A stretch of 63,898 nt of DNA, counting the filler, from Folioceros fuciformis (lineage: Eukaryota): NCBI GenBank assembly GCA_049999805.1. It is 6 parts of 5 records of this genome, joined end to end, with 100 filler letters (N's around TTAATTAATTAA, not from the genome) between each part and the next. Parts side by side here need not be neighbours in the genome. Positions count along the whole stretch, not along the records: positions 1 to 29,729 come from JBNGIO010005757.1; 5 more parts are not named here. One strand, given 5' to 3'. The translations under genes were made by a program, and so were the position numbers. Below, one piece after another: positions 1-30,062 of the stretch. How positions within the stretch are numbered: position 1 is the first letter of the stretch; each line of letters opens with the position of its first letter. The notes under the pieces were generated by a model, which was not told the origin of the DNA, made no database searches, and saw only the letters and a program-made list of their open reading frames with translations.

Positions 1-578
1 ATGGGCGGACTGCTTGATGTTCGTGAGTGAGCACAGCTAGGTGAGGTTTCCTTCCAAAGGCAGCAATCTGAGAATTGGCAAAGGTATGAGGGAGACATTT
101 ACCAATTGAGATCGGAACTTTTTTCACATCGAGCAGTCCGCCCCGAAATTTGATGGACGACGACTAAGTGGAGTGTCAGTTACGCGTGGAAAGCGAAAGG
201 GGCACAAGCACTTAGGGAGTTGAGCATGCCTGAAGAAAAGTGAGAATGAACTTCTCACAGGTGTTTGTCGGAGGACGTCCCATCAGTGAACTAGCCGAGT
301 TACTATACATCACAGCTGAGGAATTGTGGCAATGATTGTGGATAGAGGCAGTTGATTTGCTAATGTGGTTGGCCGATTGGACTCGGGAAGGTACTAACGT
401 AGATTTTTATAAGATGCCATACATAGTGTCTCGTAGGGTTGTGCTGAAGATGGTGGTGTTGCGTTTAAGTTTGACAAACGAAGCTACCCCGGTGCAACAG
501 ATTAAGACACAGGTGAATTCGTATCCATCCATTCATAAGAACAATGGGCGATTTTAGTGGAGTCATAGTCCGATAAGC

Positions 579-1649
579 ATGCTGGACTTTGGGGAGTCAA
601 GCCGGGTGGCAGGAAGAACGGACCAAGAACCAGTCCTTAGCAAGAATGATGTGTTTACAAGCAGGCATGGCAGCATGTCGCTGGCAGATTTTGAGGAAAA
701 GTTCAAATGGTCGCTAGACGAAATGGTGCTGAAATGCAAATCAGAACTCACACCGGGAATGGCGTTGAGAAAGATGAGCACATTTCTAGCTGGAGAGGCA
801 CTCACTTGCTATTGAGATTCCAAGGAGAAGATCATGGAGAATGCACGAGAGCTTATCAAGACCAGAAGAATGGGCAAGTCACTCAAAGAAGATGATGATG
901 AAGCAAGAATTGCAGGACCTTCAAAGATGGTAACGTGCTTGGTGGATGAGATGTTTCACTCGTTCTCTAAAATGTTTCCGTTCTCGTCCATTGAAAAAAT
1001 CCAAGAGTTGTCCAAGTTTGTTATCAAGCCAAATGAACCTCGTTGGTCAGTGTATATGAGGCTCCGACAGCTGGTTAAGCACACGAAGGTGAAAAAAATG
1101 AGTGAGGCAGCACAAATATACATCGCAGCCTTTCCCGATCGATAGTAAAGAGTGATTGCCAACTTTATGCACATGCTACATGGAGCAGATTATGAGCTGG
1201 AGTAGACTTATGAGATGGCTGAATGGGTGATGAAGGGTGATGCAATCACCAGTGCCTACTGGGAGGAGCACCACCTAGGTAGAGGGCATTCTAGAACAAC
1301 CAGCACCTCGAAGATCAACGGTAGGAATACATACCGTGAGCGAAGACAGTCATCTAGTCTGAGAAGATCTTCACCCCTAAAGGAGAGATCAGTCAATAGT
1401 GTTGTTGTAAGCAAAAATGCCAGCAAGTGCCCGAAGTGCAAAGGAGCACACCGAGTCAGTGAGTGTGATTATCGGTCAAGAGGGGTAAAGGAGAAGGAGG
1501 TATGTCGAGCTTGCGGTGAGCCAAGACATATTGAGGCTACATGCTGGCAAGCGCACCCCAAACTCAAGCAAAAGATAGTGAACGAGTGGAGCGGGAAAGC
1601 AGATCATGGGGCCAATTACACACACAAAGCTCTTTTGAGTGAAGTATAG
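579..1649 (+). pseudogene. Gag-like protein with two CCHC-type zinc knuckles (fragmented)
   Basis: ORFs 579-815, 834-1145 and 1215-1649; aligns by eye to the gag-like ORFs at 18541-19668 (FPFSSIEKIQELSKF vs FPLKTLEKIAELASF; FLAGEALTCY vs HLEDEALDLY). Confidence 0.7.
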
Positions 1650-2097
1650 CGCTTACACAAACAATTGGCTCTAAGTGTGAGTGTCACCACTCCGCTCACG
1701 CCGGGATGGAATGAAGACAACTCAAACGATGAGGCGGAGGTAAGTGTGCTTATGGCAGGGAGAGCGAATAAGCCACAGACAGAAATCATGGAATTTGGAA
1801 AAGGGGTTTCACGTCGGTAGTTTGAGGACATGCAACAATCTAGGATGCCAAGCTCCTTCAGGCAAATGAAAGATGATGAGACAGTTGCGTTAGCTCAATA
1901 CAAGGAACCGAATGCTGATGTGCTGTTTGAAAAGGCCATGAATGCTCCTATGATCAGTCTGCGAGATCTGGGGATCTAGACTGGTTCATTCAAACGTGCT
2001 ATGCAATCATGGATGAAAAAGGAAGCCGGTGACTAGGCTGGCAAGCCTACATGGAGATCATCTGAAGCCTGAAGCCTGAGGAAGAGGTGGAATTGCA

Positions 2098-2565
2098 ATG
2101 GTGAAAAATCAGGACAAGCATGTCACGCTCGATGGATTTGCTCTCGAATGGGTACTGATAGACACTGGTGTAGGCCTAGTGATGCTTGGATTTCGGGTGC
2201 AACAAGCTTTGAAGCTGTATGGGGAAAGAATTAGGCCAAACAATGTAAGAATCGTGACTTCTGTAGGCACCAGGGAGCGGATGTTAGGGGTAACACGGGA
2301 GCCAACTCATATAGAATTCAAAACAGGTACACTGGATGCATGTATAAAACGAGTGCACTGATTTGTGTCTAAGGTAGAGAACTATGATGTCTGGCTTGGA
2401 GCTGATGCAACCCATGGTCCCGCAATGGGGGTGGACCCATTATACTTGGTGGTGTTCTATCGATCAGGATGGCAGACCAGGAATTTTACTCGGGTAGCCC
2501 GAATTCCTTTGGAAATGAGAAGACGCGGCACAAAGGCAGGGAATGTGTCAGCACTGGGCGGTTAG
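2098..2565 (+). pseudogene. Retropepsin-type aspartic protease (one in-frame stop)
   Basis: VLIDTG catalytic motif and downstream YDVWLG motif; clear paralog at 28122-29018. Confidence 0.75.
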
Positions 2566-2817
2566 GTAGCATAGAGTCTGGATCAAGATGAAATGTGGAC
2601 AAAAACTCAAGAGATGATGGGTGAAGAAATGCAAGAGTCACACAAGAGTAGAATTGGAATGTGCATCCGGACCACCTAGGAACTGGAGCAAGCATTGGTA
2701 AGAGAACACAATCAATAGGAGAAACAAAGGTCCTGGCATGCCTCTGATGTCTGTCTGGAGAGTTGACTGCCAAATGTAAAAAGGCTCAAGGAGGAAGAGC
2801 TTCGCATTGGTAACAGG

Positions 2818-3750
2818 GTGATTCACTGGAATCCAGCTAATCAAGGGATCCATCTAGTTGAGTTGTGTGCAGGGATCAGCACTGGGTTGGAGGTAGTGCT
2901 ATGGTGTAGAATAAGAATAAAAAAATACACTTGTCTAGAGCAAAATGATAAGACCCGTGCAGTCGCAAAAGCACGAATTAGGGGTCTGCAACAATTCTTC
3001 CCCACCCAATTCAGTGTAGCAACCATGAAGGGGTGTTAAAGTAAGCTCTTTGAAGACATTAAGCTGCTGGGAAGGCAATAGTTGGAGTCTATGGGCTGTC
3101 CCGTGGACCTGCTAATGGCAAGTTGGGAATGCAAGACATTTCCAAGGTAGGTAGGGGAAGGGGGAACAGTCTAAGGCAAGTTGAGGAAGTGATACGAGTG
3201 CTACAGTTGGTGCAAGAGTTGAACCCCAATTGTTAGTATTTATTAGAAGATGTGTGTGGCGCATTTGACAAGCGAGAGGCCATCAGGCACAATTATGGAC
3301 AACTTAGACAATGGCTGGGGAGTGAGTTTATTATTGATGTTGCTCAAGTAGGTTCATATGCACGCCCGGTGCGAAGTTTCTAGACCAACGTGGCTAATGT
3401 CAAGGTCTTTAGGTAGCATAGGGTGGGCACCAAGCCCCCGCAACAAGAGGTGGATGAGATATTTGAGGAGGATAGAGTGTCTCAAGAAGTAAGAAGGGCA
3501 AATTGGCTGCCCAACTTTCCTGAATGTTGTAGGGAGGCCAAGAAGGGCCTGGCCCACACTGGTCAGCAAATCACAGTCATATGCTTTCCATCGTGGAGGT
3601 GATGGGATGGTATTGAATAAGAAAGGTGAGGAGGTTGGTGAACCAATCATCACGGAAAGACATTGCGATGGGATTCCGGTTGAATAGCACAGCAACGCCG
3701 AGAGTGTCTGACTTGTACAGATGCAGGCTTATACGGCAGGCCTTTCCAAT
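2818..3750 (+). pseudogene. C5 cytosine DNA methyltransferase domain, DNMT3-like, retroelement-borne, inactivated by stops and frameshifts
   Basis: Manual translation: motif I LVELCAGI (~2854), II YTCLE, III FEDI, IV PVDLLMASWEC/QDIS (Cys codon 3130-3132), VI YLLEDV (3237-3254), VIII DVAQVGSYARPVRSF*TN (3336-3389), IX EPIITER/IAMGF (~3640-3676), X RCRLIRQAF (~3719-3745), all in canonical order and spacing. Confidence 0.88.
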
Positions 3751-4019
3751 TGTTATGCCTATAGTAGTTGATATGTGTGGGGTTGGTGGCCCAGATGTTC
3801 GCATGTGTGCTTGGAAGAAAGCGGCACTTACGAGTGTTGGAACATGGAGCCGACTTTTCAATGGATTCTTAGCAGAAGGCATTAAGTGCGCAATGGGAAG
3901 AAACTCCGTGCATAAGAGACACAGAAAGAGATATGGAACCACCGAGGTAGACATGGGATCCGACAACCTCCAACAGTTGGCCATTGTAGAATAGGTCGAG
4001 GTTGCGGTCCACTAAATCC

Positions 4020-4960
4020 CATTAATTGAAGAACATGACCTTGGTCTTCTCAACATTCACTTCCAAAACTCTAGCTTCATAGAAGACCAACATCATGTCC
4101 AATTGCTTTGGAGGCCTTGAGGGTAATGAGACAAAAGGGCAATGTCATTTGCATATAGGAGAACAACAATGTATATCAAGGAGAGGAGGCAACCATGATC
4201 CCCAGACTTTGCAATCCAAGACTCTATAGCTCATCAACGTCGAGTCCAAATAAGTAAGGAGAAGATGGATCCCTCTATCGCACTCTTATATTAAAATAGT
4301 GAATCCAAATGATCAAAGGCAGCACAGGCAATGCAAATCTGGCCTTAACCTTCTCATGTAGAATCTCTATAGTATGAAAAAGATGTACATGAATCCTCAA
4401 CTTTTGGATGCGAGCAAAGAGCTTCTACCAAAAGATAAAGTTAAAGGCGCACATAGGTCAACAAAAGAAAACATCAACATGTATTCTATCCTTTGGTCTG
4501 CTCTTGGCCAACAATGAGAGTAAATAAAGTATACCCTTAAATGAATCCCAACTTGGCCACTTGCTTTGATACCAACAATCTCAACCCAAGAGGTTGTGAG
4601 GATTTCCAAGCACAAGACAAAAATCTTGGCAAAAATGGATTCAACCATAATATACCTGTAGTTGAGTGGGAGCTGTGGGGTCACCACCTTGAAGATAAAT
4701 TAGATATCATTCCAACACCATGCTTCGGGAAATTTATGCACCAATGTCTTATTAAACAAAGTACCTAAGGGAGAAGCAATAATCGTAGGGCCTACTTACG
4801 TAAAGAGGTTTCTCTTGGGATATATGCAAGTTTAAAGGCTCTTCCAAATCTAAGGTTATTAATGTCGGCAAGAATGAGGTTAGTAGTGAAAAGTTGGACC
4901 CCAAGGTCTTGAAACCTGTTAAGAAGGCTTTGACTAAGTCATTTGGACACAAGTAAGAGC
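4020..4960 (-). mobile_element. Non-LTR retrotransposon (LINE, RTE/RTEX-like) reverse transcriptase remnant
   Basis: Minus-strand NYRYIMVESIFAKIF...GQVG...FVDL (ORF 4397-4687) and, further downstream, a YADD-like segment LLYANDIALLSHYPQGLQ...LEVNVEKTKVMFF (~4160-4030). Confidence 0.75.
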
Positions 4961-5763
4961 GATGTAGGCGATGGGCTTGTGTGAAAAAAATAAGGTTAGA
5001 TTATAATTTTTATTTTAATGGAATTTTTAAGATTTAAAAAATGATTATAATAATTTTCTCCAAGGATAGTTATTTTATAGTGACATTTTTAAAACACCCC
5101 TCGGATATGCCGGAGTCGATAAAAGACTTTAAACATCGGATATCACTGTGTACGAGGTGTGTGTTTACACGGAAATGCTCTGGGGTTAAGTGGAAACATT
5201 TGTCTGGTTGGTGTCAATGCCGCCAGTTTTCGAACCACCGGTTTCTTTGGAGGACAAGGACACCCAGTAATACCGTCTTCACACGGAAGCGTCGCGGCAA
5301 TGGAGCCATGGAACTCCTTGCGGCCTGGACTTCAACTGCATCGGAATTCTGCGGTAGAGTTTGACTGAACTAGAATTTGTGCGTTGCTCTTGCTATTGGT
5401 CTCAGTGGTACGCTCCATTTTCATCTGTGGCCTTTCTTTCTTGATCCCATCTCGCCATGTGGCTGATCCTGAAGGTCTATCATCTGTACAAAATTATCAC
5501 GGGAAGTTCCTCGCCGAACGTAGTGTTATTCAGCCGTGCCCGCTGGTTTTTTAGCCTTAACAGCATCTTAATAGATAAGATCTGGTTACAGGGGCCAGGC
5601 CAGCTTCGATGCCCTCCTGTTGTACAAATGCTTTTGACAGGATTGTCTTCCTGCCAGTATTTGCTTGTCCGTTCGGGAGTTGTTGTCCTTTTCCACAAAC
5701 AATGTGGGAGTTCGCTGTCTCTTTCCATGAAGCATGTATATTTTACTTTGATTTCTTTGAGGG

Positions 5764-8700
5764 ATGTCAGCCAGAATTGACTATGGTCTTCGGTTGATTG
5801 ACTTATATTGACAGGCCACGGCGCAGTCTTACTCCTCGAGTTCTTATTCAGTTCCGTTGTCACCTCCAGCTGCAGCCTCAACATACTGTCAACAGCTGTA
5901 TAATCAACATCCTTATGCGCTGCAAGGTTATCCCCCAATGGTGAGCTCCACCATGTCAATCTTATACATCCACATACGGCCAGCCGCCGCGTCACCCTCT
6001 TGCTTGACTTTACTATGGCTTGGAAAATGTATGTGCAAAACGGAATTGCAGAAGTGGTCCTTGGTAGGGCCCGCAATACAACAGGCTTCGAAAGAGCTAG
6101 TGGGCTTTCTTAGCTTGTAGTGGCTCCTGATCTGTTTTTTCGGTGGTGGTTACTTCAAGAATTAGGGACTGGGTCTGTTTCATCGTTGAAGAGACTTGCT
6201 GGGACGCGTGCAAAGCAAGTGTAGCATCCGTCACCTCAATTTTTGAAAACTGCTGACAAATACCTTTGATGCTAACTGCCCAGCAACAAATGCAACATCA
6301 TCCTTCCTCTGCGATCCAAGCAGGACATACCAGCAATGGTGTTGGTCTTCAGCAGCAAGGCTCTCTTCAAGCAGGCACCTGGACACATCAGTTGGCAGGA
6401 CAAGCTGCACAACAGGGTGACCTGCATTCAGTGGATCACTCAAATCATCCTCCTATTTCATCGGTCTCAGTTGGTGGTGGTGGTGGTGCTGGGTCGTGTG
6501 TTGCAGTTCAGTACGCACACCAGTTTGTCCCTGCTTATGGTTCTGTTGGAAAAGATCCTTCACCACAGGTACTCCTTTCAGGCCGCATCCTTGAGGCATA
6601 GGCTCTGAAAGAGAGTTGCAGTGTATCTGTGCTTGTAAGATGCCTTCGCAGTTTCCCGAAATACACGTCTCTCATAGCTCAGAGGTTTGTGTTAATTTAC
6701 AGTTTCCAGGAGCAGGAGCAAGAGGAGTAAGATCTCCAGACGTTCAGGCTGGAATTTTAACACTTAACAGGGGTTCCGCTGCCTTCACTGGACTTCAAGA
6801 TCGGGCTACAGTGTCCCCATTTGTTCTAAGCGGCTCTGCTCCCGTTAGTGGCCCTGGAGTTTACGGTCTGGAATCTGCTAATTTGCCCTCCAAGTCAAGT
6901 TTTGCTTGTCATGCCGGCCATGGTAATAACTATGTGGCTGCTTCCCCTTCAGCATATTTGGAGAATACTGCCGACTTGTCCACTTCCAAGTCTGGAGACT
7001 ATTGCTACGCAGAAAGGGGACAGATTTCTCCAAATCAGCCAGCATATGCGCAAGCTGATTCTCAAGGAGATTCTGCACGAAGATACCACGAACCACATGC
7101 AACTGCTGTGGTCATGCAGATACAAGTGAGTTTCCGGGTTGTAAGTTTTGAACACACACTTAAGAAATTCTTTTGGCAATTAAATTCCTGGAGATTCTAA
7201 GGTGTCTAATGCTCGAAGCATAAATGTACAGCAGCAGCAGCAACAACAACAACAACAACAAGGCGGACAAGGCCAGGTACATATTTTGTTCCGTTCTCTG
7301 TTCCTGCCATGTGCACTCCGTGGCACAGTCCCCTAAGATATTGTTGGATGCACAACATTAATCTTGTGGTCCTGAAAGAGTCAGTTATTCCAACAGAAAC
7401 ATCAAAACGTGCATCAAACTCTCATAGGTCGTGGCAACATTACACCTGCTGAAGGCAGCTCCACGTAAGTCTAAAAATATAGTCTGCTGTGTGTGCGGAT
7501 ACAGTGAAGGGGTTAGGGATTGTTGCTGTGGATGGATTTTGCACACTAGTGAATTCCATCGAGTAGTTGGATTTCATGTTGCATAGGAATTGCGCTGTTG
7601 TCTGCTCAAGCCCAGTTAACATGGCGGTGTGGTCTGGAGCCTTGCATGGATTCTTCTTTCCATCTTCAGCTGAATTTGAAACCCTTTCTGAGTGCATCCT
7701 ACTGAGGAGTCAGAAGTTCTTGAGTTTTGGATCTCACAGTAGCTAGTAGATGCAAGGTATGATGTTGCACCGACGAGAGTGGTAAGTGGTACCTATGTGG
7801 TCAACAGTGCAGAAGGAGACTCTGGTTCATTAGATGCGCAGTTAAGGGGAGCAAGGATTAATTGCTTCACACCGACTGCCCAGCAGCAGTTGTCTGCTTC
7901 TGAGGCAGTTTCTGGAAACCCTAATCCGTCTGGGCAGCTGTATGCTCACTTGGTTGGCGTCAGTTATGGGGGCATAAGCTTGCCTCGTGGACGGGACTAT
8001 AGTGCAGGCCGTGGAACAGGAGGTGGAGGTTTAGTCTCTCGTGATGGAAGATCAGAGCGAGGAGGCACAGGACATGACCGTCGTGATGACAAGCACCCGA
8101 TTCGGCGAGAACAAGATCGACGCAGAGATGATGACAGGAGGAATACGAGGGATCGTGACCGGGATAGGGAGAAAGGGCTAAGAGACCATGACAAGGAGAA
8201 AGAAAGAGATGCGGACAGGCCATCTCTAAGGTTCTCTAAAGATGGAAAGGACTGTCCGTTTTCTCAGCGTGAGGAACGAGGCCCCAAAAAAGCTTCCTCT
8301 CGTTATGAAGGCTGCAGGTTAGGTGCTATGACCTCTTCTGTCCAGTTCAGTACAATGATCAGAATTTGATATTTGTTACTGGCAACTGACACAGGCATTC
8401 ATCTCCCCTAAAAGAGAGGAGGAGAGACTATATGTTTAAGGTCAGGCGTTGAATCTGGAGTCTACATCCTGCTGGCGAATATGATGCTGGGACGTCCTTC
8501 ATGTGGGATGTTTCCTGCTCTGCAGGTTGATCTGAATAGTTTCACTGAGACTGAACGAGATCATCTTTCAGTGTGTAGACGTTATACACGGTTGTTTGTT
8601 GTGCCTGAATTTACCAAGGTACTGTTGTCAGCTTCACTGTCGAACTTCCTCAGTCAGTGTTCTCTTGTTGTTGCACTGTGCAGAATGTGGTCCTGATCGT

Positions 8701-11700
8701 TTGTCTGTTTCACGTGTAGCTTGTAGCATGTTGGGCTGGAAGGCCAATGGAGCTGTCACTTGATAAGCCTATCAGGTCTACTTCTACTGCACATTAGCAT
8801 CGTGTGCAGGAAAGTTTCTATTTTGTTTTTTGGGAGGAAATGTTTCCGTGGCACTGCAGCGTACTGCAGATTTTAAACAGCCTATCAGTGAGAGCACTGA
8901 GGCAATTACTTTCCCTTGTAAATGCTAGGTTTTTTTTTTTTCTGGGTTCTACTTCTATCCTGTTGAATGAACTTGAATGGGTCGGATTAGCGTTTATCAT
9001 GAACTTGAACAAACACTGGCTGTCAATTCTAGGTCAAAGTTCTCGCTCTTCACCAGAACTTCTTTGTCTGCCTTGGTCCTTCTTGCTTGATCACTTAAAT
9101 TGAGGTTGCTGATGGTGCCAAGAGGCTTCTTGTTCAGATTAGGCCAAAGTACCTGCTGATTTGTTTATTGTGCCACAGCTTTGAGCATGATGCAGTAGAC
9201 GTAGAGTATGATCTGGGATTCAGAGAGGCTCTCCCAAAGTCCTCTGACAGTGCACTTGCAACTGCAAGACCAGCAAAGGGCAGCGTCATCTGGAATGCTA
9301 AGGTGAGCCCCAACGGACTGAAATTTTCTTACGTTTTAAAATTTGAACTCCGCTGTTGTTTTACTTTTTGTCCAGTACCACAACTAGCAGCCCTTGCCCT
9401 TCGTGTTGCAACGCTATCAAGTTGCTGAACTAGCGGTTTTCCAATTAGCCGGTGGGTCTAACTTGGGCAAGTTATAGAGATGCTGTTGTCTAGAATTATG
9501 CTCTTTCCTGGAAATGAAGACCGCACTCATGACTCGTCTGACTTAGATGACCTCCATGGCCATGTAGTGCTCTGACCATTGGTCCCATCAATTAAAGCCT
9601 TGACTGGCTGGAGAGTCTGCTAATTGGAAGCAGGTTTTAGCTTTTGACATTTCTCCCTTTGTGCAGGTCATGCTCATGAGTGGGCCAAGTGAGGAGCTCT
9701 TGGATGAGTTTTTGCTGAATAAGGGCACAGAGGATAAGCCACCTCATTTACACAATCTTCTGAAATTTGTTGCATTAAGAAAAGATCGCAGTGCGATAAT
9801 GGCTGCAGGGGGAGTGTGGGATAAAGTCCTAGATGGAGGTGATCCCGCAACTGATGAGGCGGCTCTGATACGGACAATTGTGAGGTTAGATGTTTTAGAT
9901 GCGTTTTAGGTATGCATTCTTCGAGGTTTAATGTCGTGTTTTGAAGTCTGGATTCTATGCCTTCACATAGCCACACTCATGGCATGGCTGTTGCAGGTGT
10001 ACCAAAGAGAGTACTGAGCTTGATCTCAGCTCCTGCAAAAAGTGGAGCCGGATTGTTGAGGTAGTTTAAAGTTTACTTCAAAGAATTGATGGTCTCGTTG
10101 CTGTTATAGATGTCTGTGGACTAGGCATGATGTGCATGTAGCGGGTGGACTTCATCTGCTTGAGCTTTGTTAGAGTAGGGGTTCCTTTCCTGAACCAGAA
10201 CTTGGATCGTGAACTGTGTTGTGATCCAAACAACTAGGTACATTATGAAAGACATGGTGAAGATGGTCTTCCAAGTTACTATGAGGTTACAGTGATGTTT
10301 CTTCCTGACATCTCTGGTTGTGTACCCTGTCGGGAGGAATGGCGGAGGGAGTGGCTTTGTAGAAAGCGATCAGGAGCTGAGCACGAAGAACCTCAGACAA
10401 AGCTTAATCTCATTGCAGTAGGTGTTCTGAGCTTCTTGAGTTCTGGGCAAGAGAGAAGGTTTCCCTTAGAGAGGATCTCCCAATTCATGTCGAACAAGAT
10501 CTCTGCGAGACATTTATGCATTCCCTGATGTATTCTCAAATCATTGAGTTTGTTTGTTCGAATATTCAGGCGCCTGAAGAGAAAGCTGGTAGGCCACTTG
10601 TGAAGCTTTCACAACTTTGAAATCAACAGTGGTGTTCTCATCTCATTCAAGATTGTATGCTGTGTCTCTGATAATGGAATAGATCCAAATTGTCCAGACA
10701 GCATAAAAAAAGTTATAGTTGAGCAGGAAGAAGCGAAAGAAATTGAAGGCACGAGAAGTATGGATGAGAAGAGGGATCGATTGAAAGGGAAGGAAAAAAT
10801 TTCAAATGGTTGCAAGGAGGAAGTAAAAGGCGTTGAAGAATGTCCACCATACCCTGGCTTTTTTCTGAGAACAAAACGGAGCAAGACCACCCGGGTATGT
10901 GGTTGGGAAATTGTCTCAGCTACTCCTGATTAATGCCACCCCCTCGTTTTCACGGAAGAAGGCACGTAATGGTGTCAGTTCGATGCATATATTCCTACTC
11001 ATCCTCGTGACTGCCGTGGTATTAACACAGATCCGATCCATGACAATTTCTCTTGATGGCCTGCTTGACTACGATGAAGGTGACAGGGAAGAATGTACTT
11101 TTGAGGTTGGTGGAGTGCAATTTGGTTAACGTTGATAATGCTTTGAATCAAATTCCCTTAGTAATACTGCTTGCATTTGACCTGCAAGTCAGCTCTCTCT
11201 ATTTGCCGAGGTGTTCCAAGAGATGCTACAGTGGAAGATGGGTGTGGAGATTTTGTCAGCATTGAAGGTACCCTTGTGCCTGCATGTCTTTTGAACTGAC
11301 GGACATTATATTCGCGTTGATCCATTGTGCTCGGTACCCATAGTTTTACGTGGGCGTTGAGATATTGTCGTTTCTCCATTCCAGGTGTTACGAGACACAC
11401 TATATGGACAGCGAAGTATCGAGAGAAAGCGGAGCTGGACAGAATGTCAGTTGATCTGTGATATTCGTGAGGATATGGACGGGTCATTGAGAAAAAGGGG
11501 CACAAGTTATGGAGTCTATTCCAGGGACGATATTATTCCTTTTAGTCGTGAGGAGAGGCAAAAAGAATATTTTCTAATGAAGGAAGGAAAACAAGGCCCC
11601 AGAGCTGAGATCCATGCACCTTCAGCGTCTAAGGGCACCATCGGCACCTGGGAACGTGATCCAAGGAACACAACTCAACTCGCAAAGCAGCCTTGCGAGG

Positions 11701-12473
11701 ATTGGAAGATGCAGGAGGACCTCGCGGCTATATTTCCACAAATCGATGAACAAAATCATACTGGGCATGAAGTAAAGCTCCATAGCTGTCTTGAAGTTAT
11801 TTGCAGGTTCTTGTGTACAATCTCGAGTCCCTGACTTGACTCTTCAGCAGGAAGGAGGACAGGATTTTAAACCTAGGAAAAAAATGGTGTCAAATAAGAA
11901 GTTGATGCAGGTGATTTCTCGTCCAGGTCAAGGGACCTTTTGTCTTTCTCAATTGGTGTTACAGAAATGGTGACTGACCAGTCGAGTTCTGTGTCTTCTA
12001 GGCATTTCAATACTTTGATCGCAATCATGTCGGATATATCAAGGTAGATATTCTTTCCTCTGGATTCCAGACCTGGGCATGGCCTTGCACTCTATATTAA
12101 ACACATGCACTCAGTGCTACACCTCAAACAAAGTTTTTTTTTCAGCTTGCCCATTCCCATGCTTCCACTTCATCCCTTTCATTGACCCTTACGTTCAGGC
12201 AGATGATTTGCGTCGGCTTCTACACTGCCTTGGGAAATTCATGTCTCGCCGAACTGTTCAGGTAACCTTCTTATTCCGGAGATCTGGTTGGTGTGGGCAA
12301 GTTGAAGATTCGTCTTTGCTGCTCCACTGCGAGCAGCTGATGAATTGCGTCACCTTTGACAACAGGAGCTTGTTCGCCGCGCTCTTGAAGAAAGCAAGTC
12401 ACGGGATGAACGGATCCTCTACAGGAACTTGGTGGAAAGGGAATCAGAGTCAACATTTCAGGCTGAGATATAA
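5764..12473 (+). CDS. CCAR1/DBC1-family nuclear protein (plant RSA1/EMB1579-like), multi-exon
   Basis: Q/G/S-rich N-terminal exons and an RD/RE-rich region (~8040-8300). DBC1-domain exons: 9667-9884 (VMLMSG...LKFVALRKDRSAIMAAGGVWDKVLDGGDP), ~9997-10060 and ~10239-10418 (VHYERHGEDG...VMFLPDIS). Then ISLDGLLDYDEGDREECTFE/LSLFAEVFQEML and an EF-hand (AFQYFDRNHVGYIK/ADDLRRLLHCLG). Last exon 12366-12473 ends in TAA. GT-AG introns. Start codon uncertain. Confidence 0.88.
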
Positions 12474-13202
12474 GAGGAGGTAGTCGGTTGGATTCTCCTC
12501 TGCTGCCGAAAATTTTCAATGCGAGTTGGTGAGACAAAATACTAAACATTATCCTGGTTAAAACCTTGCACTTTCTTGCCTGCATCCTGTAGTGTACCCT
12601 ACCCTCAGAGGATGGATTTTTTTGTGTTATTGAACGCGAAGTGGAGTCCCCGTAGGAAAACTTGTGCAGGAGTTTCCTAAATGAAACTGAACTCCATTCC
12701 GAAAAGGGCTATTATCATGTGCAGGCCACATCAAACAATGGCTATGCATCTATCAGCTCCACTTAAAACGAACCCAGAGCTCGTGGTCCCAACGCAATTC
12801 CCAAGTTGCAAGGATCCAATGGATATTGGATTGTCTTGTAAAACCGGGAGTAAAACGGGTGCCGCCCCTCCAAAAAATGTAAAATCATGTTGTGAAAACA
12901 TATAGCACTTTTTCCTTATGGTGGCATTCTTAGTTGTTATATTCTTTGCTGCATAGTAGGATTCAGGTTATCTTAGTATCTTAATCATGATTTATCTTCC
13001 TTTCAGTAGTAGATAATTTTTTATCTTATTTAAAAAAAAATATTCCATTGTAGAAGCCATCATCTCATTTCAATGCTGTTTGCTTTTGCTTTTTTTATAA
13101 TACATAGTGTATATTATTTTAGTTTTTGTACATAAGATTAATTTTATTTTTATTTTTTACATAAACCAATATTTGGTTCCTTAAACTATTATCGGGTTTG
13201 GT

Positions 13203-13293
13203 CCCCTTTAGGCATCACTAGAGAGTCTTGACCAAATCCCTTTAGGCATCACTAGAGAGTCTTGACCAAACCCCTTTAGGCATCACTAGAGAG
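13203..13293 (+). repeat. ~34-bp tandem repeat, about 2.6 copies
   Basis: ccctttaggcatcactagagagtcttgaccaaa repeated at ~13204, ~13238 and ~13272. Confidence 0.9.
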
Positions 13294-14410
13294 ACTTAGG
13301 CGTTCCTGTAGGACCTCCTGATTTTGTTCATAAGATAATGGATGCAGCGTTGGATGAAGATTTGGCTCATATCATGGACCTCTCACAAATCGGTGACCAT
13401 CAAATTATGTTCGATATCCTTTCTTCCTTTTTTGTGTGGCGACAAGTTACCTTACAAGAACTGTTGTGCCTTCTCCAGTTTTCTTATCAAGTCTTAGGAA
13501 GTTCAACAATTAAGTTATGTAGGCTTTTGGGGAAATCATAGATCTCGATACCTTTGATTGTATAGTCGGTGATTTAGCTCAGAAATAGGCTTCCTTGCCA
13601 GTGGTCTTTGGAAGGGTTGGCATTTTGGCCATGAAGGCCTCTGCCCTAACTACCTTTTTCAATAGTTGGGCCCTCTCAACTCCAATTTCGGCCTCATTTT
13701 TTGTTGCAAGATTCTCTTCTTCTTGAAGATTTTATCTTAGGCGTTGAGGAGGGCATTTTCCCTTTATAGGTTTTCTCTTCAGCAAGCGAGGGATTCTTTA
13801 CCTTTGGAGGCTCGTGAGGCTCTACCTTCTTTCACCTCCCTTTCTAGGGGAGGGTTGAGGGATCTCCCTCCTACAAGAGCAAAACGACCAAGCACTATGA
13901 ACCCTTCTTTCGAATTCATCCATCCCTAGGTCTTCTTGGGCTCGTATTCACTCTTGTTCAAGTAAAGAAGCGGGATCTTGACTTTTGGCTCGACCTTGCA
14001 TCCGCGCGTTTCAAATCGCACTAGCAACTTTCGCTAGCGCGATGAGATTTCGCTTAGGTTTGGCCCACCCCTTGGCTTTTTTTATCTCTCTACATGGAGT
14101 TGTGGGGTTGCCATTGTTGATATAGGGTCCTTATATGGCACGTTGTCCCGTTGGCATTGCCACCCATGATGTAGTTTGAGATGTCATGTTCTCAATGGCG
14201 AGGGAGTGTGGGTTTCTTCCGTATAGGGAGCGTCCATATACTTTGCGCAACGGGGTTTCACTTAGAGTTCACCTTTTTTTCACTAGGGGAGAACTGGTTT
14301 GTATCGCTGATGTAGATGTTATGGATCCCACTCGGGATTCGATCTACGAGCACGTCATCATCAACCCTCCTAGATGGGCGGTGGAAGGTGCTTTCTACCG
14401 TCAATGAGGC
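13290..14410 (+). mobile_element. Non-LTR retrotransposon fragment, CRE-like with restriction-like endonuclease (degenerate)
   Basis: LGVPVG...; ASLPVVFGRVGI; ARIHSCSSKEAGS*LLARP; AMRFRLGLAHP; a CCHC remnant; THDVV*DVMFSMARECGF...RVHL...CIADVDVMDP. This is the post-RT/RLE layout typical of CRE-clade elements. Confidence 0.7.
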
Positions 14411-14816
14411 TCGATGTGATGATTTCCAAAGTAGTTATGAGGTCCCAAACTATAACAGAGGCCAGGTGTGGTAACCGCGAGTGAAGCTACAAGTTGTTAA
14501 TATTTTTCTTCTACATCCTTGTACTCCGCTAAATAATTCACTAACTACTTTCATACGTACTAGATGCATCAAAGTACTATAAGCATCTAGTACCTTCTGG
14601 TAGAGCAAAGCCATATGAGGTGCTTGCGAGGGGGAAAAAACAAGGAAAGAAAAAGGCAAATAACATCGCAGATCGCACAGTCTTCCTGCATCCACAAGGG
14701 AGGCACTCAGCACAGGAGGAAAGAAGCGACCAGTGCACGTTAAATTTCAACCCGGAGGGAATTGGAAGCACAAGTTTTCTATCAGACCTCTTGGAGGAGC
14801 AACTTGCCCTCTGCAT

Positions 14817-17015
14817 TCACGCATAAGGGACCAGCGTAGTTTGAGGCCGGATATCCACGAAGCCACATGATAGGGCCATTAGTAAGAAAGCTCCCTCCTC
14901 GTCATCGGTTAGTGCTTCATGTACCTGACCCATGCCACTGACATCCTGCAGACTCTTCTCATGGCCACAATCTTGAATTTTCCAGTCGGTACCTGCTGTG
15001 ACAAACTCAACAAGGGATCTCACACATTCAGATCCTTGCACTGAACACGTGGGCAGAGTAAAAATCGGGGACCCTTCCTCTACATGCTTATCTGACATAC
15101 AGTTGCCACGATCGCCAGCTGAATAATTTAGTTCATTGCAGCTACAGCGACCATGACCTCCTGCCTCTGCACTCCTTACTCGCTTTTGAGAAAAAGCTCC
15201 AAGACTCTGCATATTCTTCTCAACTGTTGAACAACTAGGCCAAGCTTGTTCAGGTCCAACGACAGACTTCCGTTTTGGCAACTTCCCAGAGATGCAAACC
15301 ACTTCGACTGACAAGGAAGGCGAAGATAGCACGTCAGAATTCTTGGATGAGCTCAGGCGCCTTCCAGTTTTTTTAAACCGTATTCCACAGGCATTGCACA
15401 GCGACTGCAACAGGAGCCAACGTGTCAGAGTCTACCAAACGAAGGGGAGTGCAAAGCAGGCAATTCAACATAAAATGATGCGCCAGAAGGCTGCTCAGAA
15501 GAATAACGCCACCTTGGGACCTTGCGGGCCATTTCTCCAGAGAGGAGTTCTAGATGTCCCACAGCGCATACAAGACCTTAACGCCTGAATCTCATGTCCG
15601 TCCTGGTTTCTACTGGCTCCACGGGAGGGAACGATATCTGTGTCAGGTAAAGGACTCTGTTTGGTCAGCAACCATCTGCCCTCCGACTTCCTCTCATTGA
15701 GCTCCTGGAGAAGGGGACGAGCTGCCCAGGATTTCTTCGGCTTATTGCTCGAAACAGGATGTGGTGAAAGCACTGGAAAATCTTCCGAGCAGCTCTGGCC
15801 GCTGGACTTACGAGACAAGTTCGGACAATCACTCACACCCCTTTCGCTGGGCAAGCTTTTACTACGTTTCAAAGTTACCTTTGCCCTAGATGCCTTGGAA
15901 TCAACAATGCGTGGAAGCGATTGTCTAGACTGCAAGAGATGCAACAGAGTCCTGTATCAATACGTCGTGCATGCTTTCATCTGCCAAGCCAAAGGACATC
16001 AATTTGTGAACCAAGAACCTGGGTTCTAGAATCAATCCAGAAAGTACTATGACTGGGTGAGAGAACATAGTCTTATACCCTGGACGCCAGGAACCTCACA
16101 AACCTGATGACGAAAATTAATGCTGTAGTCTGAAGTTGCCCAGGCAATGGGGCAGGAAAGCAGTTCCGGCCTTACGTATCGGGCATGATCTCCTGGAATG
16201 TCAACCAGATCCCGCTTGATGCTCGACCTAGTACTCCCCTTCCCTTCATCCAGTGTATTGAAAGAAAACCCAGCAATCTTGTGGATGATCCCGTCATCGA
16301 TGGAAGTCTGCTGGAGGTCATCGAGCTCTCCAGACCCAAGCTTCTCCAGATCAGAGTCTTCCACAACATGCACGCACTTGAAACTTGTTGAGTGACGCTC
16401 AGGCTTACCATGTTTAGGAGTCGAGAGAGACAGGGTACAGTCCACGTGTGACTCGACGGACAAACTTTCCGAGGCCTCTCTCTGCTCCGAAGTCTGTTGA
16501 GCAGATTGCACGTGCAAAATATCCGATAACACGCTGGATGAGGACGAATAATTTGCACACACTGCAAGACTTGTATTCTCCAGGCTTCCTGCATTCGTCT
16601 CTTGAAACTGACCATACACCCCCGCAAAGTCCCGTCTCTCAAGACCCTCGGGCCGTTTTATGGTAGTGCCTCCACCGGCGATAGCCAGCTTCGCTTCACT
16701 TTTACATGGTGGAGACTTGAAATAACTCCAAGGGCTACTGTTTTGCGCTGATCTCGCATGATACATTGGTGATACTAGACCGCTGTTACCTTCGCACCAC
16801 TGCTGGTAATGGTCGTCAGTCTGGGTTTGCCTTAGCCAACACTGCTTGTAGTGAGTGTGCCCAGAAGGGGTGGGGAAGAAACTGAGTTTGCAACATAGCC
16901 TCCTTACCTCCAAAGTGGATTCGTGACCGGACGCGTGGACCCGTGCGGAAACAACTAGCAACGACCGCCAAGACAAAGCTCGTCTGCAACACAATGTAAA
17001 GCTGCCAGATCGCAT
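14817..17015 (-). CDS. B-class GATA zinc-finger transcription factor with HAN and LLM domains (3 exons: 17015-16104, 15929-15513, 15404-14817)
   Basis: C-x2-C-x18-C-x2-C finger CMRCGTSRTPLWRNGPQGPK|SLCNACGIRFKK, split by a phase-0 GT-AG intron 15512-15405; a second phase-0 intron spans 16103-15930. N-terminal VDCTLSLSTP (HAN) and C-terminal EEGAFLLMALSCG (LLM). True ATG may be downstream of 17015. Confidence 0.93.
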
Positions 17016-18540
17016 CCTAGCCAGTGCGAGGAGATAGGCGAAAGCTGAGGACTTCAGCAGGGACTTTCACCACTAAGGCTGGATTCGCATGAACCGAAGG
17101 TCATGGAGACTTTATTATTAAAGAATACATGGAACCCATGTACCCCTCTACAAAGGGGACAACCCTGTGAAGGCAAAGGCAATTATACGAGGGGAGTCCT
17201 CCCGAGAATTTCAGTGAGGATATGAAAGCTTTGAGGATACGAAAGCACCTCACTAGAAATGGAATCAAGTGAAATAAGGTGAAAGATAAAAGTAGAAAAA
17301 GATAAAAGAGCTACTTGGAGCCTAGTGTTCAGTCATGAGAGAGTTGAGTGATTTGTAAGTGGAGCGCTGCAGAGTGAATAGACAAGATTAGAGGCCATTG
17401 CTTCTTTTTATGCCATGTAAGGAAGGGGGTGTTACTTAACTACCATGGAATATGAAAGTGCTTAATAAGCACAAACTATGAAAGCACTAATTACCACTGG
17501 AGCCAAGAAGCTGCTTCATATGTGTTCTACGCGGTAAGTGGCAAAAGCTCTTCGGTCTTCCTTTGCCTCAAAAAAGCACCTATATAAAAAAGTTAAGGAG
17601 TAGTTTCAATCTTGCCATTGTAATAAAACCCAAACCTGGAAAGGGCCTAGTTTGGGCTAGAGTTGGGCTGGACTATTCACATGTTCATGCACTTTAATTT
17701 GGACTTAATGATTGTCACCTAACACTATCATTTCATATTTTGATTTATCCGTTAAAGCTCCACGAATTGTACCCTCATATGAGAAACTTCACAAACACCA
17801 CTTTCTTAAGTGCTTTTCACAAACTCCACATACCATATCCTAGCTTAACACATTTGAGTCAATATACTTCACAATGCCGTGATTCAAGTGTGTGGATGGT
17901 GCAAGGACTTGAGTTGAGTTTTCAATTACGAACTCTCCTAAGAGGGAAAAAGGGAAGGAAGGGTTGGATTCAAATGCAAGGATAGACCCACCCCTAGAAG
18001 ATGCTTAGGTGGTCTCACCCCCTCAACCAACTACCTTAGGGGACTCACCCCTAACCCCACCTCTGCCAAGGGAAATTGTGCAAGATGCAAATCGTGGTCT
18101 TGTTTTCTAGTCAACAAGTTCCCTGCGAGTGAGGGAGCTTATTAACACTTGCAAACTGCCATGCAGGCTATCCACTGAGCAAGCAAAATAGGAAGTCGAA
18201 GCTATGGAGCTTGCGGTGGAGTTGTAGAGGGGGGACGCGGCAACTCCCGCCATGCTCGGGTAAGAGGAAAGGGAGCAAGCCAGAGGGCGAGTGAGGGAGC
18301 TCGATCTTGCTTTGGAATTTAATTTGGAGGAGTAACAACAAATGAAGCAAGAACTTCACTCATGCCCCTATGAGGTTGATGAATTGACTAAGTAACTTGT
18401 GTTGTCCAAGAAAGAGCGGACCAAGCCCTCCAAGCCTTTCAGATCCTCAAAGAGCAAACCAAGCACATGCGTGTGACATACAGCCAAAAAAGTCACAAAC
18501 TTGTTTCGGCCGATCCTAGTCCATGTCTTAATAACCTAGG

Positions 18541-20100
18541 GTGGACAGCCTTCAGTTCACTCAGGCCTTAGATTCCCCTCATCCAGGACAACCATACTTC
18601 AGTCAGTCACGTGCTGAGTATTATGAAGACTTAGACGACATGGAGGGAGGAGCACCTTACAGGCATGAGAGATTTTTAGGGAGGCCAGGTACACAGCCCC
18701 CACGGGACTTCAGGTTATTTGTCAATGGCATGATCAGTCAGGTCAAGTTTAAACATGGTGCTGCGTACAACCACCTCTACTTGTTTGAACAATTGGCTGG
18801 GCATCTAGAAGACGAGGCCCTAGACTTGTATGAGGTGCACCAAGCTGAACTCACAACAACGGTGGCTACACCTAACCCCCTGTTCCAGAATGCCTTGTAG
18901 CTAGCTTACAATGCTAAGCTAGCTAATGCAATTAATTCTCACCAGGCTGGTATTGCTATTGGGAGCATTGCAGCCACTGTGCAACCACCAACGGTGGTCA
19001 CCCTAACAACAGCAGAGATGGCTACAACTACTGTAGGTGTGGATGCTGACATCCTCACACCCAAGCATGCCAACCCAGTTGAAGACTTTTTGGGGATTTT
19101 GGAAAAGGCTTTTCCCCTCAAGACACTTGAGAAGATTGCAGAGTTGGCAAGTTTTGCGCGCAAGAAAGGTGAAACTATTCAAATGACCTTTCGTCGACTA
19201 CAGAAATTGCGAGAGGGTACAGGAATGCTGACAGACCAGGAGGCAGCACATAAATTCCTCACAGCACTAGGAGGTGATCCACTTTTCCACTTTCAGCTCG
19301 TCACATCCCTTGTGGATAAGTATGGAGATAGTTATACTTTGGAGCAGGTGCACGAGGAGGCTGAGAAGAAGGAGATTGCATTCTCAGCATATGCCTCAAA
19401 GCATTCCAAGGCCTTGACGCATTATCAAAGCATGTTCTCTAGTAAGAACATAGTTGCTGGGAGTGTAGGTGTTGGGGCATCCACGTCTACTCAAGCCAAG
19501 CTAGCCAAAGCAGGAGCTACAACAACCTTGGAGGCTTTGTGCAATCACTGTGGCAGTCTAGAGCACATGGCTCCGGCCTGCAAGTGCCCTCCTAAAGGAC
19601 TGCTTTGTTCTCATTGCCACAACCCTGGACATCTTGTGACTATATGCTTCCAAAAGCATTTGAAGTGAAGGCAACAGCGAGGGGGCACCACAAATGTTGC
19701 ATGGACAGCTCCCACTTCCACTAATTCAAGCTCCTCAGCTACAGTAATTTAGGAGTCTCACGCAGCAAACAGTAGTGAGAGAAGGCCAAGGCCAAGGTGG
19801 CTACTAATGCGGACAAGCTCACTTCACTAGAAGTAATCGTGGCTGCTCTTGCCACACAGGTGGGGGCACTTTCAGCTAGCATCTCTAGCAGCATAGCTGC
19901 TTCCAAGCCAGCTGGGACCACAACTTGCGATGACGACAAATTGAGGATAATTTAAGGGAAGCCACTATCCAAATTCAAGGACTCCAAGATGTTTTGTTTG
20001 ATCTCATTTCAGGAGTTCAGCAGCTTTTTTTTGTTGGCTTCCCCGTTGGAAGAGGAAAAGCGCATGCATATGGCTAAGCTATTTTCACTGAGACGCTCAT
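18541..20100 (+). mobile_element. Gag-like region of the same family as the DNMT-bearing element (two zinc knuckles)
   Basis: ORFs 18541-18900 and 18979-19668 in one frame separated by a stop; CNHCGSLEHMAPAC and CSHCHNPGHLVTIC; similarity to 579-1649. Confidence 0.7.
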
Positions 20101-27135: not shown

Positions 27136-28121
27136 CCTCCAAAAAGTGACATACGATGGCTCTCCCACTAGGCTATGGCTAGGTGAAGAAACAACAAAAA
27201 ATATGAACCGTTTTTTTGAAGAAAAACATGATAAATTCAAAAATAAATATTTTTCAGAAATAAATATGGTAAAATGGGTTACATAAAATTTCTATTTATG
27301 CATCAAAAGAATGCTAGCTACGCTTACTTGCTGTGCAAGGAGGCTGTGATGGGGCCATCAGTTTGGGGGAGGGTAGAATACTATCTGCTCAACCTCGGAC
27401 TGATGGCTACGTCAATGCTTCCTAGCGCACACAAGGTTAGAAAGCAACAGGATACGTAACAAAAAAACCAAGACAGCGAGCAACCAGGGCAGTACGTGAA
27501 AAAACAAGAGAAAACACCTCCTCACAAGCCATAGTGCTCACTTGTGCAGCAACTCGGCCAGGTTTGTGTCGGGGTGGACCAGAAGCAGCGCATTGCACAT
27601 GTGATCAGTCGGAAACGTGCCCTTCTAGAAAAAATGTGCCGGAAAAAACACCAGACTGGCAAATTCGAGCGCACCACCACACCAAATCCCAGCAGCCTAA
27701 CTGTCACAGCCGAATCCAAACGCACCGGCCTGAGAACGATGTCTTGGCCAGATCGACCGCATCGGTTTGATTCTTGGCCTCCCACCCTACAGCGGAAGCG
27801 GAAGGGCTAAGGGGATGGGGCACCGCCATCTCTGGTGGTGCCCTGCATCGGGTCTCCAAGCAAATCGTAGTGCATTTGGCTGATTCGGTAGGTTAGATGA
27901 TCAAGCTCTTCCTGTGTCGTGTGCGCTAAAGCAGCAACAATGGCCTCCATGCGCCTTGAATTCCCACCTGCCCGGCAAATACGAAGGCACCACAATTCCA
28001 AGACTGTGAGCCCAAACCTAACCGTCACGGGGTCTGCCTCTGTCGATCTCCTGCATGGCCTAGGCTGAAGGAGGCGTGCTTTTGAGGGTGGAGGCACTCG
28101 GCACGGGCTTGTTATCTTAAC

Positions 28122-28985
28122 ATGGGATCCATGCTAGGGGTACACACCTCTCAACGTGCCATGTCCATGCCAGGTTACCCTCACGTGCAGCCCACCAACC
28201 GCATGAAGGTGCGCGTCAGCAATACCATGGTAGATAACCGGGAGGGGCATGTCACTATCAACGAATATACACCAAAGATGGTCCTCTTGGACACTAGAGC
28301 GCAGCCCGTCATCATCGGCAAGACCCTTGCTACAAGGCTGCGATTGGGTGGAGATGCTCTCAAAGCATCATCGTGGAACATCTGGATAGCATATGGGTCA
28401 ATTGAGCTTGTTTGCGGAGAGACTGTACAACCAGTTACCATTACATTGAAGCCCGACACAGCCTCCTCCATGACGCTTGCCTTGCATTGTCTAGTGACCA
28501 CGGCCACAAATTATGATGTGCTTCTTGGGCAAGAGTTACTCTTCCCTCCAGGCATAGGCGCAGACAATTGGTCCGAGCTCGGCTACTATAGGCCTGATTG
28601 GAGGAACGGAGGTCAGCAGGTGGCCTACTTGCCTCTTGATCTCCATGGAGCTATTGAGGTGGACATTGCCACCTTGATTGCCCCCCTGGTGCTTACATGC
28701 ACCTTGATTCTTAACACCAGGCTGGTGGACACTTGGCTGGATACCAATCTGGATGACGAGGATGGAATGATGGACCAACTAGGACAGTCATTAGCAGCAA
28801 CCTCGTGCTTGAGGGATGTGTTGTTGGAAAATGGCAGGGGTAATCCATGTGCAGACATCTTGCATGTAGCCACCCCACAAGTGCAATTGGCCCTTCAAAG
28901 GATGCAGCCACCTCCCGCACCAGATGACCAAGCAACGCTCGGCGATGTCAATCAGTCCATCATAGCATGGACACCCTGTGAAAAT
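28122..28985 (+). mobile_element. Retropepsin region of the DNMT-element family, truncated just before the methyltransferase
   Basis: MVDNREGHVTINEYTPKMVLLDTR..YDVLLG..GYYRPDWR..VAYLPL..IIAWTP aligns with MVKNQDKHVTLDGFALEWVLIDTG..YDVWLG..VFYRSGWQ..VARIPL..VIHWNP at 2098-2835. Confidence 0.75.
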
Positions 28986-29399
28986 CCTAGCAGTAGGATT
29001 GCATCTAGTCTAGCATGATCAAGATGCAATGCTCAGAAAGATATTTTGTGTTTTAATTTGGAGAAGGTGTATACAAAGTGTGTCTTAAATAGTGTCACTG
29101 GGTGTCTCTTCCGAAGTGGCACACCCGTTTGTAATTATTAAACACTATTAATTACGATCTACGGTAACTAGCTGGTTGGCAGGGTTACGGGCAGGTTATC
29201 CATTCCGTAACACCCCCTCTTAAAGCTGAACGTAACCTGACCAGTGGTGGAGGCTATCTCCCATGGAGCGCGATGCTCCTCTTTGATGTGCTCCCTCTGA
29301 AGGCTAATGAGAGCTTGTACATGCCATTTGGAGGCACGGCACTGAAGAGGCACAAGTCAGGATTTATGATCCTGAAAAAGCAGCATGACCCCCTTGAAG

Positions 29400-29729: not shown

Positions 29730-29829
29730 NNNNNNNNNNNNNNNNNNNNNNNNNNNNNNNNNNNNNNNNNNNNTTAATTAATTAANNNNNNNNNNNNNNN
29801 NNNNNNNNNNNNNNNNNNNNNNNNNNNNN
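29730..29829. other. Artificial contig linker (N44-TTAATTAATTAA-N44); same linker at 43570-43669, 54014-54113, 58544-58643 and 61871-61970
   Basis: Identical 100-nt block with a six-frame stop palindrome in the middle. Confidence 0.97.
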
Positions 29830-30062
29830 ACCGGTAGTCGAGCGACAACAGAGGTAGCCGAAGGGGCTACCGGTAGTCGAGCGACAACAGAGGTAGCCGA
29901 AGGGGCTACTGGTAGTCGAGTGACAACAGAGGTAGCCAAAGGGGCTACCAATAGTCGAGCGACAACGGAGGTAGCCTTAGGTAGTCGAACTACAACGGAG
30001 GTAGTCGAAGGGGCCGCCGGTAGTTGAGCGACAACGGAGGTAGCCGAAGCAGCTACCAGTAG
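29830..30062 (+). repeat. 33-bp tandem minisatellite within LTR
   Basis: accggtagtcgagcgacaacggaggtagccgaaggggct-type units; related units at ~31820-31930, ~44870-45035 and ~46730-46830. Confidence 0.85.

Follow-up and report, generated by a model that had tools for sequence, protein, structure and literature searches.

We examined a 63,898-nt stretch of DNA from Folioceros fuciformis (assembly GCA_049999805.1), referred to as the window, and all coordinates count along it. Near its start, positions 558-3994 of the plus strand hold, when read across three frames, a decayed gag with two CCHC knuckles, an aspartic protease, a linker, and a C5 cytosine methyltransferase. We interpret this region as a dead, 3′-truncated copy of a Ty3/Gypsy-type retrotransposon belonging to a family whose first reading frame fuses Gag, a retropepsin, and a DNMT3-like DNA methyltransferase (DNMT), and we place the probability of this reading at about 0.92. 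In whole relatives, the reverse transcriptase (RT), RNase H (RH), integrase (INT), and often a PHD finger follow, either in the same open reading frame (ORF) or past one in-frame UAG. In live elements the protease (PR) would free the enzyme from the Gag-Pro-DNMT polyprotein; the freed enzyme would then methylate DNA, and its target may be newly made cDNA or an insertion of the element itself.

Relatives of the element were gathered with the frame-1 translation only. The query was a read-through of 2080-3687 with stops written as X, searched with full HMMER against 1.84 billion proteins, and it yielded 168 relatives at E≤1e-3, 21 of them at ≤1e-10 and two at ≤1e-30. Twenty database relatives were used to build a hidden Markov model (HMM), profile A1, which we ran against the six frames of the whole window (127,792 translated residues). 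A1 gave four matches that are strictly colinear and fall in three different frames (Table 1), with no further match at E<1 on either strand of the whole 63.9 kb. Because the relatives were found by frame 1 only, the matches in frames 0 and 2 are independent checks. A tblastn search with 152 relatives against positions 1-6000 returned colinear high-scoring segment pairs in frame 1 (2839-3141), frame 0 (3132-3521), frame 1 (3523-3660), and frame 2 (3647-3751), with those over the second part of the DNMT coming from, for example, P0032, P0069, P0074, P0076, and P0090. The motif series could in principle be a chance resemblance in junk DNA, which would fit the lack of direct Pfam or PDB matches for single pieces and one off-family result in a language-model atlas (see below); however, chance would have to deliver four colinear A1 matches in three frames, with E-values down to 1e-29 and none elsewhere, as well as 168 relatives, and we give it next to no probability.

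The initial annotation had read six C5 methyltransferase motifs in this region, and the three-frame translation, profile alignment, and motif table all place them in the claimed order and positions. The order I, IV, VI, VIII, IX, X is colinear both with the profile and with DNMT3A. Motif I reads ..ELCAGISTGL, of which GISTGL is shared with Marchantia proteins. Motif IV (3112-3135) reads DLLMASWEC, with a frameshift directly after the Cys and QDIS in the next frame. Intact members from Closterium and metagenomes, in both architectures described below and including P0034 and P0090, share its W-E-C in place of the canonical Pro-Cys, and W-P-C is kept in Marchantia and L001. Motif VI is YLLEDV, preceded by a stop and carrying E-D-V where the family has E-N-V, a form absent from the intact relatives. 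Motif VIII is DVAQVGSYARPVRSF-stop-TN, with the stop replacing the family's Trp, motif IX is EPIITE.. / ..IAMGF, and motif X is RCRLIRQAF. Motifs IX and X and the target-recognition stretch can still be recognised. The catalytic residues are not intact, as both the Pro-Cys of motif IV and the Glu-Asn-Val of motif VI are altered.

The DNMT region contains five in-frame stops (TAA at 3037 and TAG at 3079, 3234, 3381, and 3414), one more than the roughly four first reported, and the three reported frameshifts map to ~3135, ~3519, and ~3658. A further six in-frame stops lie in the protease and linker, bringing the total for gag, protease, and linker to 13. The copy is dead because of the five stops and three frameshifts in its DNMT, the 13 further stops upstream, and the lack of pol or long terminal repeats (LTRs), which agrees with what had been claimed; it is an inert fossil, riddled with stops, whose 3′ end lies against another repeat. 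A motif search found no tRNA-Met-type primer-binding site near the element. The element is 3′-truncated, and on its 5′ side it may run past the start of the window. Its CpG observed/expected ratio is 0.49 compared to 0.51 for the window, giving no signal. In a separate observation, contigs of run X3 depart from positions 1-5100 almost solely by C>T, at 488 places compared to 89 for G>A; this pattern is as in bisulfite- or enzyme-converted DNA, and methylation data that cover the element may exist for this organism.

Membership of the window DNMT in the C5 methyltransferases can be assigned at the sequence level through intermediates that pass the PF00145 cut-off. Among the relatives, PF00145 scored above this cut-off in 7 of 9, 3 of 6, and 3 of 5, the last being L001 ORF1, P0209, and P0211. 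Single proteins that combine zf-CCHC, an aspartic protease, and DNA_methylase include P0005, P0007, P0010, P0015, and P0034. The piece 2767-3036 of the window itself led to the PF00145 set in 27 of its 30 language-model atlas matches, with a score of 0.94.

Within the C5 methyltransferases the family is closest to DNMT3. Searching PDB with A1 gave DNMT3A at 3.4e-25, DNMT3C at 7e-24, and DNMT3B at 2.5e-23, followed by DRM at 1e-14 to 4e-12 and HhaI at 3e-10; no DNMT1 or CMT appeared at E≤0.01. The relative P0069 reached DNMT3A at 1.5e-8. P0069 was modelled in AlphaFold2 using A1, with a pLDDT (predicted local distance difference test) of 93 and a pTM (predicted template-modelling score) of 0.91, and among the Foldseek matches listed for this model all are DNMT3A, DNMT3B, or DNMT3C, the best with an E-value of 5.5e-21 and a template-modelling score of 0.80 on the target. 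Identity of P0069 to solved DNMT3 chains is 22-24%, with 24% for the best match. Host-type DNMT3 enzymes carry regulatory N-terminal domains such as PWWP and ADD. No host-type regulatory N-terminal domains were found by Pfam in the relatives, which carry zf-CCHC, Retrotrans_gag, and an aspartic protease upstream instead. Profile and predicted fold together thus put DNMT3A/B/C first, as the initial annotation had proposed for the enzyme, and indicate at the level of the family that it is DNMT3-like with an unrearranged motif order. Comparison of the metagenomic relatives L001 and L003 gave dN/dS (the ratio of nonsynonymous to synonymous substitution rates) of 0.12 for the DNMT and 0.09 for the protease, at a dS of 1.4-2.0 that is near saturation; at the sequence level this shows purifying selection on the DNMT between these two related elements.

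The methyltransferase is joined to retroviral-type sequence upstream. As claimed earlier, a gag with two knuckles and a DTG-bearing protease precede it on the same strand. We used a second family profile, A2, which covers gag, protease, linker, and the start of the DNMT. A2 matches the gag region at 642-1970 (profile 78-590, E 3e-22) and then runs through 2080-3159 (E 2.6e-68) in one unbroken alignment from protease to linker to DNMT. P0002 is 41% identical to the window over 558-1568, and the window protease is 54% identical to that of P0002 and 44% to that of P0001; the protease of relatives belongs to PF13975/PF13650. Fifteen of the 152 proteins match the window protease and DNMT colinearly. 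Other, diverged gag and protease copies, 80-90% alike, are present among contigs of the DNA sample whose contigs also cover the element and its junction with the host region. P0264 is a gag fragment of the family that is not encoded in the window.

Whole relatives suggest what has been lost from the window copy. P0034 (2188 aa) contains zf-CCHC, protease, DNA_methylase, RVT_1, RT_RNaseH, Integrase_H2C2, and rve in a single protein. L001, a metagenome contig reached via the single protein P0200, divides these functions between two ORFs: ORF1 (1006-5085) is gag-PR-DNMT, with PF00145 at 51 bits, and ORF2 (5098-8229) encodes RT, RNase H, integrase, and a PHD finger. In both L001 and L003, the pol ORF comes directly after the gag-PR-DNMT ORF in the same frame with a single UAG between them (junctions at 5083-5097 in L001 and 4661-4675 in L003), followed by CAG-UUA or CAA-UCA. 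The sequence CAR-YYA is a leaky-stop context in tobamoviruses, and by analogy the pol of L001/L003-type elements may come from UAG read-through.

We tallied domain orders over 228 related proteins by blastp with the L001 domains and the A1 HMM. The order PR-DNMT and/or DNMT-RT was found in 58 proteins, and 68 had an order of the RT-RH-DNMT-INT type (RH-DNMT and/or DNMT-INT); 80 had DNMT alone, 16 protease alone, and 6 were others. This second architecture, RT-RH-DNMT-INT-PHD, is common, with examples in P0018, P0074, and P0090 and the full order in 37 of the 228 proteins. A PHD finger (PF00628) lies after the integrase in L001 ORF2 (residues 986-1030) and in P0018, P0074, and P0090. Chromoviruses carry a chromodomain after the integrase, in the position where the PHD finger of these relatives sits.

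We built a tree from 102 DNMT domains out of 123 with near-complete cover, having dropped rows less than 75% filled and rows at least 85% identical. The tree (311 columns, IQ-TREE quick, LG+G4) was rooted on one long dinoflagellate row; it lacks rows for host DNMT3, DRM, and K. nitens, and its rows were selected for similarity to the window. One clade of 36 rows, with a support of 99 in the Shimodaira-Hasegawa-like approximate likelihood ratio test (SH-aLRT), contains the window together with every one of the 26 protease-linked rows and 9 unclassified rows. No row classified in the RH-DNMT-INT order is found in this clade, and the rows of that order do not form a clade themselves. Protease-DNMT linkage is shown by these sequence comparisons to be conserved in the family. 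The domain could otherwise be a processed pseudogene of a host DNMT3 whose insertion next to an unrelated stretch of gag and protease was accidental, since the DNMT part lacks introns, is decayed, and resembles DNMT3, and the window copy has no pol or LTRs to bind its pieces together. However, the unbroken A2 alignment spans protease, linker, and DNMT start, relatives match protease and DNMT in order, and single ORFs in Closterium, Marchantia, and metagenomes encode both; the window domain also sits in the protease-linked clade, among relatives without host-type N-terminal domains. The 15 colinear matches out of 152 and the clade dispose of this chance insertion, which the initial annotation had left as an alternative, and we consider it extremely improbable. 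Origin from a DNMT-carrying retrotransposon and linkage to gag and protease thus stand as first proposed, in a window copy that is more truncated than had been thought and is without RT-RNaseH-integrase.

Several results weigh against our interpretation of 558-3994 as a copy of such a retrotransposon, including the makeup of the tree and the near-saturated dS given above. None of the 16 window piece queries run directly against Pfam, of which 10 were free of stops and 6 were read through with an X for each stop, matched PF00145, even at E≤1, or a protease or gag family; the gene lies in four frame pieces with five stops. A phmmer search of PDB with two window pieces found no methyltransferase, and a word-based search with the piece 3123-3401, made against longer proteins only, found no match. 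The window DNMT is at most 35% identical to full-domain relatives. Two relatives with the RT-RH-DNMT-INT order, P0090 and P0074, do not reach PF00145 at E≤0.01. The piece 3237-3380 (48 aa) led in the atlas to SMODS nucleotidyltransferase clusters with low shared-feature counts. There is no RT-RNaseH-integrase of the element's family anywhere in the window, and positions 1-20000 contain no direct repeats of at least 40 nt, so no LTRs are seen. We infer the Ty3/Gypsy class of the window copy from the relatives P0034 and L001 only. A SMODS nucleotidyltransferase identity for 3237-3380 was considered and is treated as chance in a 48-aa piece.

The named relatives that share the protease linkage come from Closterium and liverworts. 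Closterium spp. are represented by GJP34393.1 and many CAI... records, and the liverwort Calypogeia fissa by CAM6085511.1, whose match covers the window protease and DNMT start. Marchantia polymorpha contributes MARPO_0204s0011, MARPO_0020s0163, Mp_4g09160, Mp_8g17980, and others, many of these Marchantia proteins with PF00145. Mp_4g09160 (1278 aa) keeps GWPCQG, ENV, AHRxR..WTN, ERERAMGF, and LGQAMD, and on sequence grounds Marchantia apparently holds intact copies. In Sphagnum proteins only the gag-protease part is matched. Named members of the RT-RH-DNMT-INT architecture are found in Chlamydomonas eustigma and Cymbomonas; profile E-values for DNMTs of this architecture reach 1e-148, and a single distant dinoflagellate protein, P0217, was found at E 6.6e-13. 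No Klebsormidium protein was seen among the relatives with visible names. Because the window copy is only 24-37% identical to the named relatives, it is a divergent member of the family.

Most of the named Marchantia proteins are gag-PR-DNMT only, with lengths of about 1150-1330 aa, and both family members in the window are without pol (the second is described below). These observations would also fit a gag-PR-DNMT unit, non-autonomous or domesticated, that has always lacked a pol of its own in the host genome. However, in L001 and L003 the pol ORF follows in frame after one stop, and gene callers would therefore split such elements; in Marchantia, P0230 carries PF00145 and PF17917 in one protein; and a copy as riddled with stops as the one in the window is not a maintained host gene. 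We regard a unit of this kind as quite improbable and retain the truncated retrotransposon as the explanation of the window copy.

The host is likely a land plant, because the window contains a gene of the B-GATA type bearing both HAN and LLM motifs, and named relatives exist in liverworts. At 14817-17066 on the minus strand, this one gene combines the LLM motif (AFLLMALS) and a HAN-like motif (VDCTLSLS) with a split GATA finger (PF00320, E 4e-5), and we take the presence of HAN and LLM motifs in one protein to point to a bryophyte. Many Closterium proteins are found among the named relatives, and the supporting DNA runs come from one sample that is possibly the assembly's own source, so that the element could be a contaminant from an alga or a product of chimeric assembly, with a Closterium-like alga as one conceivable source, and not part of the GATA-bearing plant genome. 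Against this, identical contigs cover 3209-4946 and 4975-6000, further ones span 3859-4972 and 4626-5094, and their depth is similar. RNA contigs with the same species label, from a different study, match the spliced exons at 5226-5940 (plus strand) exactly, with GT..AG joints at 5352-5814 and 5378-5475. Farther along, past the GATA gene, the window holds a second element of the family (18.6-29 kb), and liverwort genomes contain the family too. Contamination is therefore very improbable in our judgement, and we read the element as resident in the plant genome.

The coordinates of the features are collected in Table 1. The spliced host gene covered by the RNA contigs starts ~1.2 kb past the element; no RNA contigs were seen over 1-5200 in the runs compared, which is uninformative on expression. 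Between them, the stretch at 4000-4760 is marked as repeated by raised summed contig depth and by many loose ends at 4125-4756, and none of three frames of this fragment matched Pfam. The gag of the second element shows tblastx similarity to the first element, and its protease is 30% identical to that of the first. A Copia element (ORFs 21752-24918) splits it. A1 detected no DNMT after the protease of the second element, where N runs follow at 29730-29829.

Table 1. Features of the first element, its profile matches, and its surroundings in the window.
Feature	Position	Strand	Details
Gag remnant, frame 0	558..1979	+	CCHC knuckles 1428-1466 and 1503-1544; 7 in-frame stops
Aspartic protease remnant, frame 1	2080..2565	+	DTG at 2161-2169
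Protease-methyltransferase linker, frame 1	2566..2817	+	Within A1 and A2 alignments; stops 2572, 2677, 2716, 2764
DNMT part 1, frame 1	2818..3135	+	Motif I to Cys of motif IV; stops 3037, 3079
DNMT part 2, frame 0	3132..3518	+	Motif IV end, VI (EDV), VIII; stops 3234, 3381, 3414
DNMT part 3, frame 1	3520..3660	+	Target-recognition stretch (NVVGRPRRAWPTLVS..) to motif IX start
DNMT part 4, frame 2	3656..3750	+	Motifs IX-X
C-terminal tail of ORF1-type protein, frame 2	3751..3994	+	Open frame; stop at 3992; element end
A1 match	2602-3138	+	Profile 22-195, E 1.2e-29
A1 match	3132-3518	+	Profile 194-328, E 1.5e-21
A1 match	3520-3660	+	Profile 330-376, E 1.3e-14
A1 match	3656-3748	+	Profile 376-406, E 1.2e-3
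Fragment of other repeat	4000..4760	-	Adjoins element; RT-like ..YANDIALL.., ..KTKVMFF.. by eye only
Gag, second related element	18616..19758	+	A2 profile 62-468, E 3.5e-34
Intact 310-aa ORF with protease, second element	28086..29018	+	A2 636-805 at 28152-28655, E 4.9e-46

Two further observations concern the N runs. Paired runs of 44 N, with 12 bases between them, occur five times (29730-29829, 43570-43669, 54014-54113, 58544-58643, and 61871-61970), mostly inside Copia-like ORFs, and look like masking rather than assembly gaps. Directly past the first of these, at 29830-30100 (plus strand), is a tandem peptide-like repeat in which ..TGSRATTEVAEGA.. occurs several times in one frame.

Methyltransferases carried by retrotransposons have been described before. 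The available text of de Mendoza et al. 2018 (PMC5890265) reports Dnmt3-type domains in two settings: the Pol polyprotein of a Klebsormidium nitens Gypsy element (KnitGypsy-Dnmt3) and DIRS elements of Symbiodinium (SymbioDIRS-Dnmt3). The DIRS enzymes carried out de novo CG methylation in yeast; the K. nitens enzyme had no activity there, a result that its authors call inconclusive (PMC5890265). Self-methylation of an element's own cDNA or insertion is a hypothesis put forward in that paper (PMC5890265), and a 2025 survey, in its available text, lists DNMT3 members in retrotransposons of streptophytes and dinoflagellates (PMC12344493). As far as the description in the available text goes, the window element belongs, as a further member, to the kind that de Mendoza et al. 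2018 described (PMC5890265).

KnitGypsy-Dnmt3 resembles the family of the window element in having an intronless DNMT3-type enzyme with unrearranged motifs in an LTR Gypsy polyprotein of a streptophyte (PMC5890265), and in both the DNMT is under purifying selection, with a reported Ka/Ks <0.2 for KnitGypsy (PMC5890265) and the value given above for L001 and L003. It is algal, whereas the window element neighbours a GATA gene of bryophyte type and has relatives in liverworts. The comparison with KnitGypsy-Dnmt3 is by description and not by sequence, and the available text gives no domain order (PMC5890265). SymbioDIRS-Dnmt3 likewise has a DNMT3-type enzyme inside a retrotransposon polyprotein (PMC5890265); however, it is described as a DIRS element with a tyrosine recombinase, whereas relatives of the window element have a DDE integrase (rve, Integrase_H2C2) in Gypsy order. 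Host DNMT3 enzymes, both animal DNMT3A/B/C and plant (Physcomitrium, in the available text of PMC6453930), have the same I-IV-VI-VIII-IX-X order. They differ from the window family in their surroundings, as the neighbours in the family are Gag and protease without host regulatory domains, and in motif IV, where host DNMT3 has the usual P-C and many family members, including the window, have W-E-C. The RT-RH-DNMT-INT-PHD elements share with the window family a DNMT of the same family, a pol of Gypsy type, and a PHD finger following the integrase, but place the enzyme between RNase H and integrase rather than after the protease.

No paper that we found names a DNMT carried by elements in liverworts, Marchantia, or other land plants, and supplements may list bryophyte cases. 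That bryophytes and their algal sister group, the Zygnematophyceae, host a distinct Gypsy lineage whose Gag-Pro carries a fused DNMT3-like enzyme ahead of RT is a proposal that we advance tentatively and hold at somewhat less than even odds. The window copy, together with the Marchantia, Calypogeia, and Closterium proteins, which are annotated and unnamed, suggests that elements of this kind live or lived in land plants. Counts of bryophyte "DNMT3" genes can be inflated by copies of such elements. The window copy is of value because it points to a Gypsy lineage that carries a protease-linked DNMT3 and has members in land plants, and Marchantia is a tractable model for what an element gains from its host's silencing enzyme. 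If this lineage is real and some of its copies remain expressed, de novo methyltransferases encoded by elements would act in land plants beside DNMT3, DRM, and CMT.

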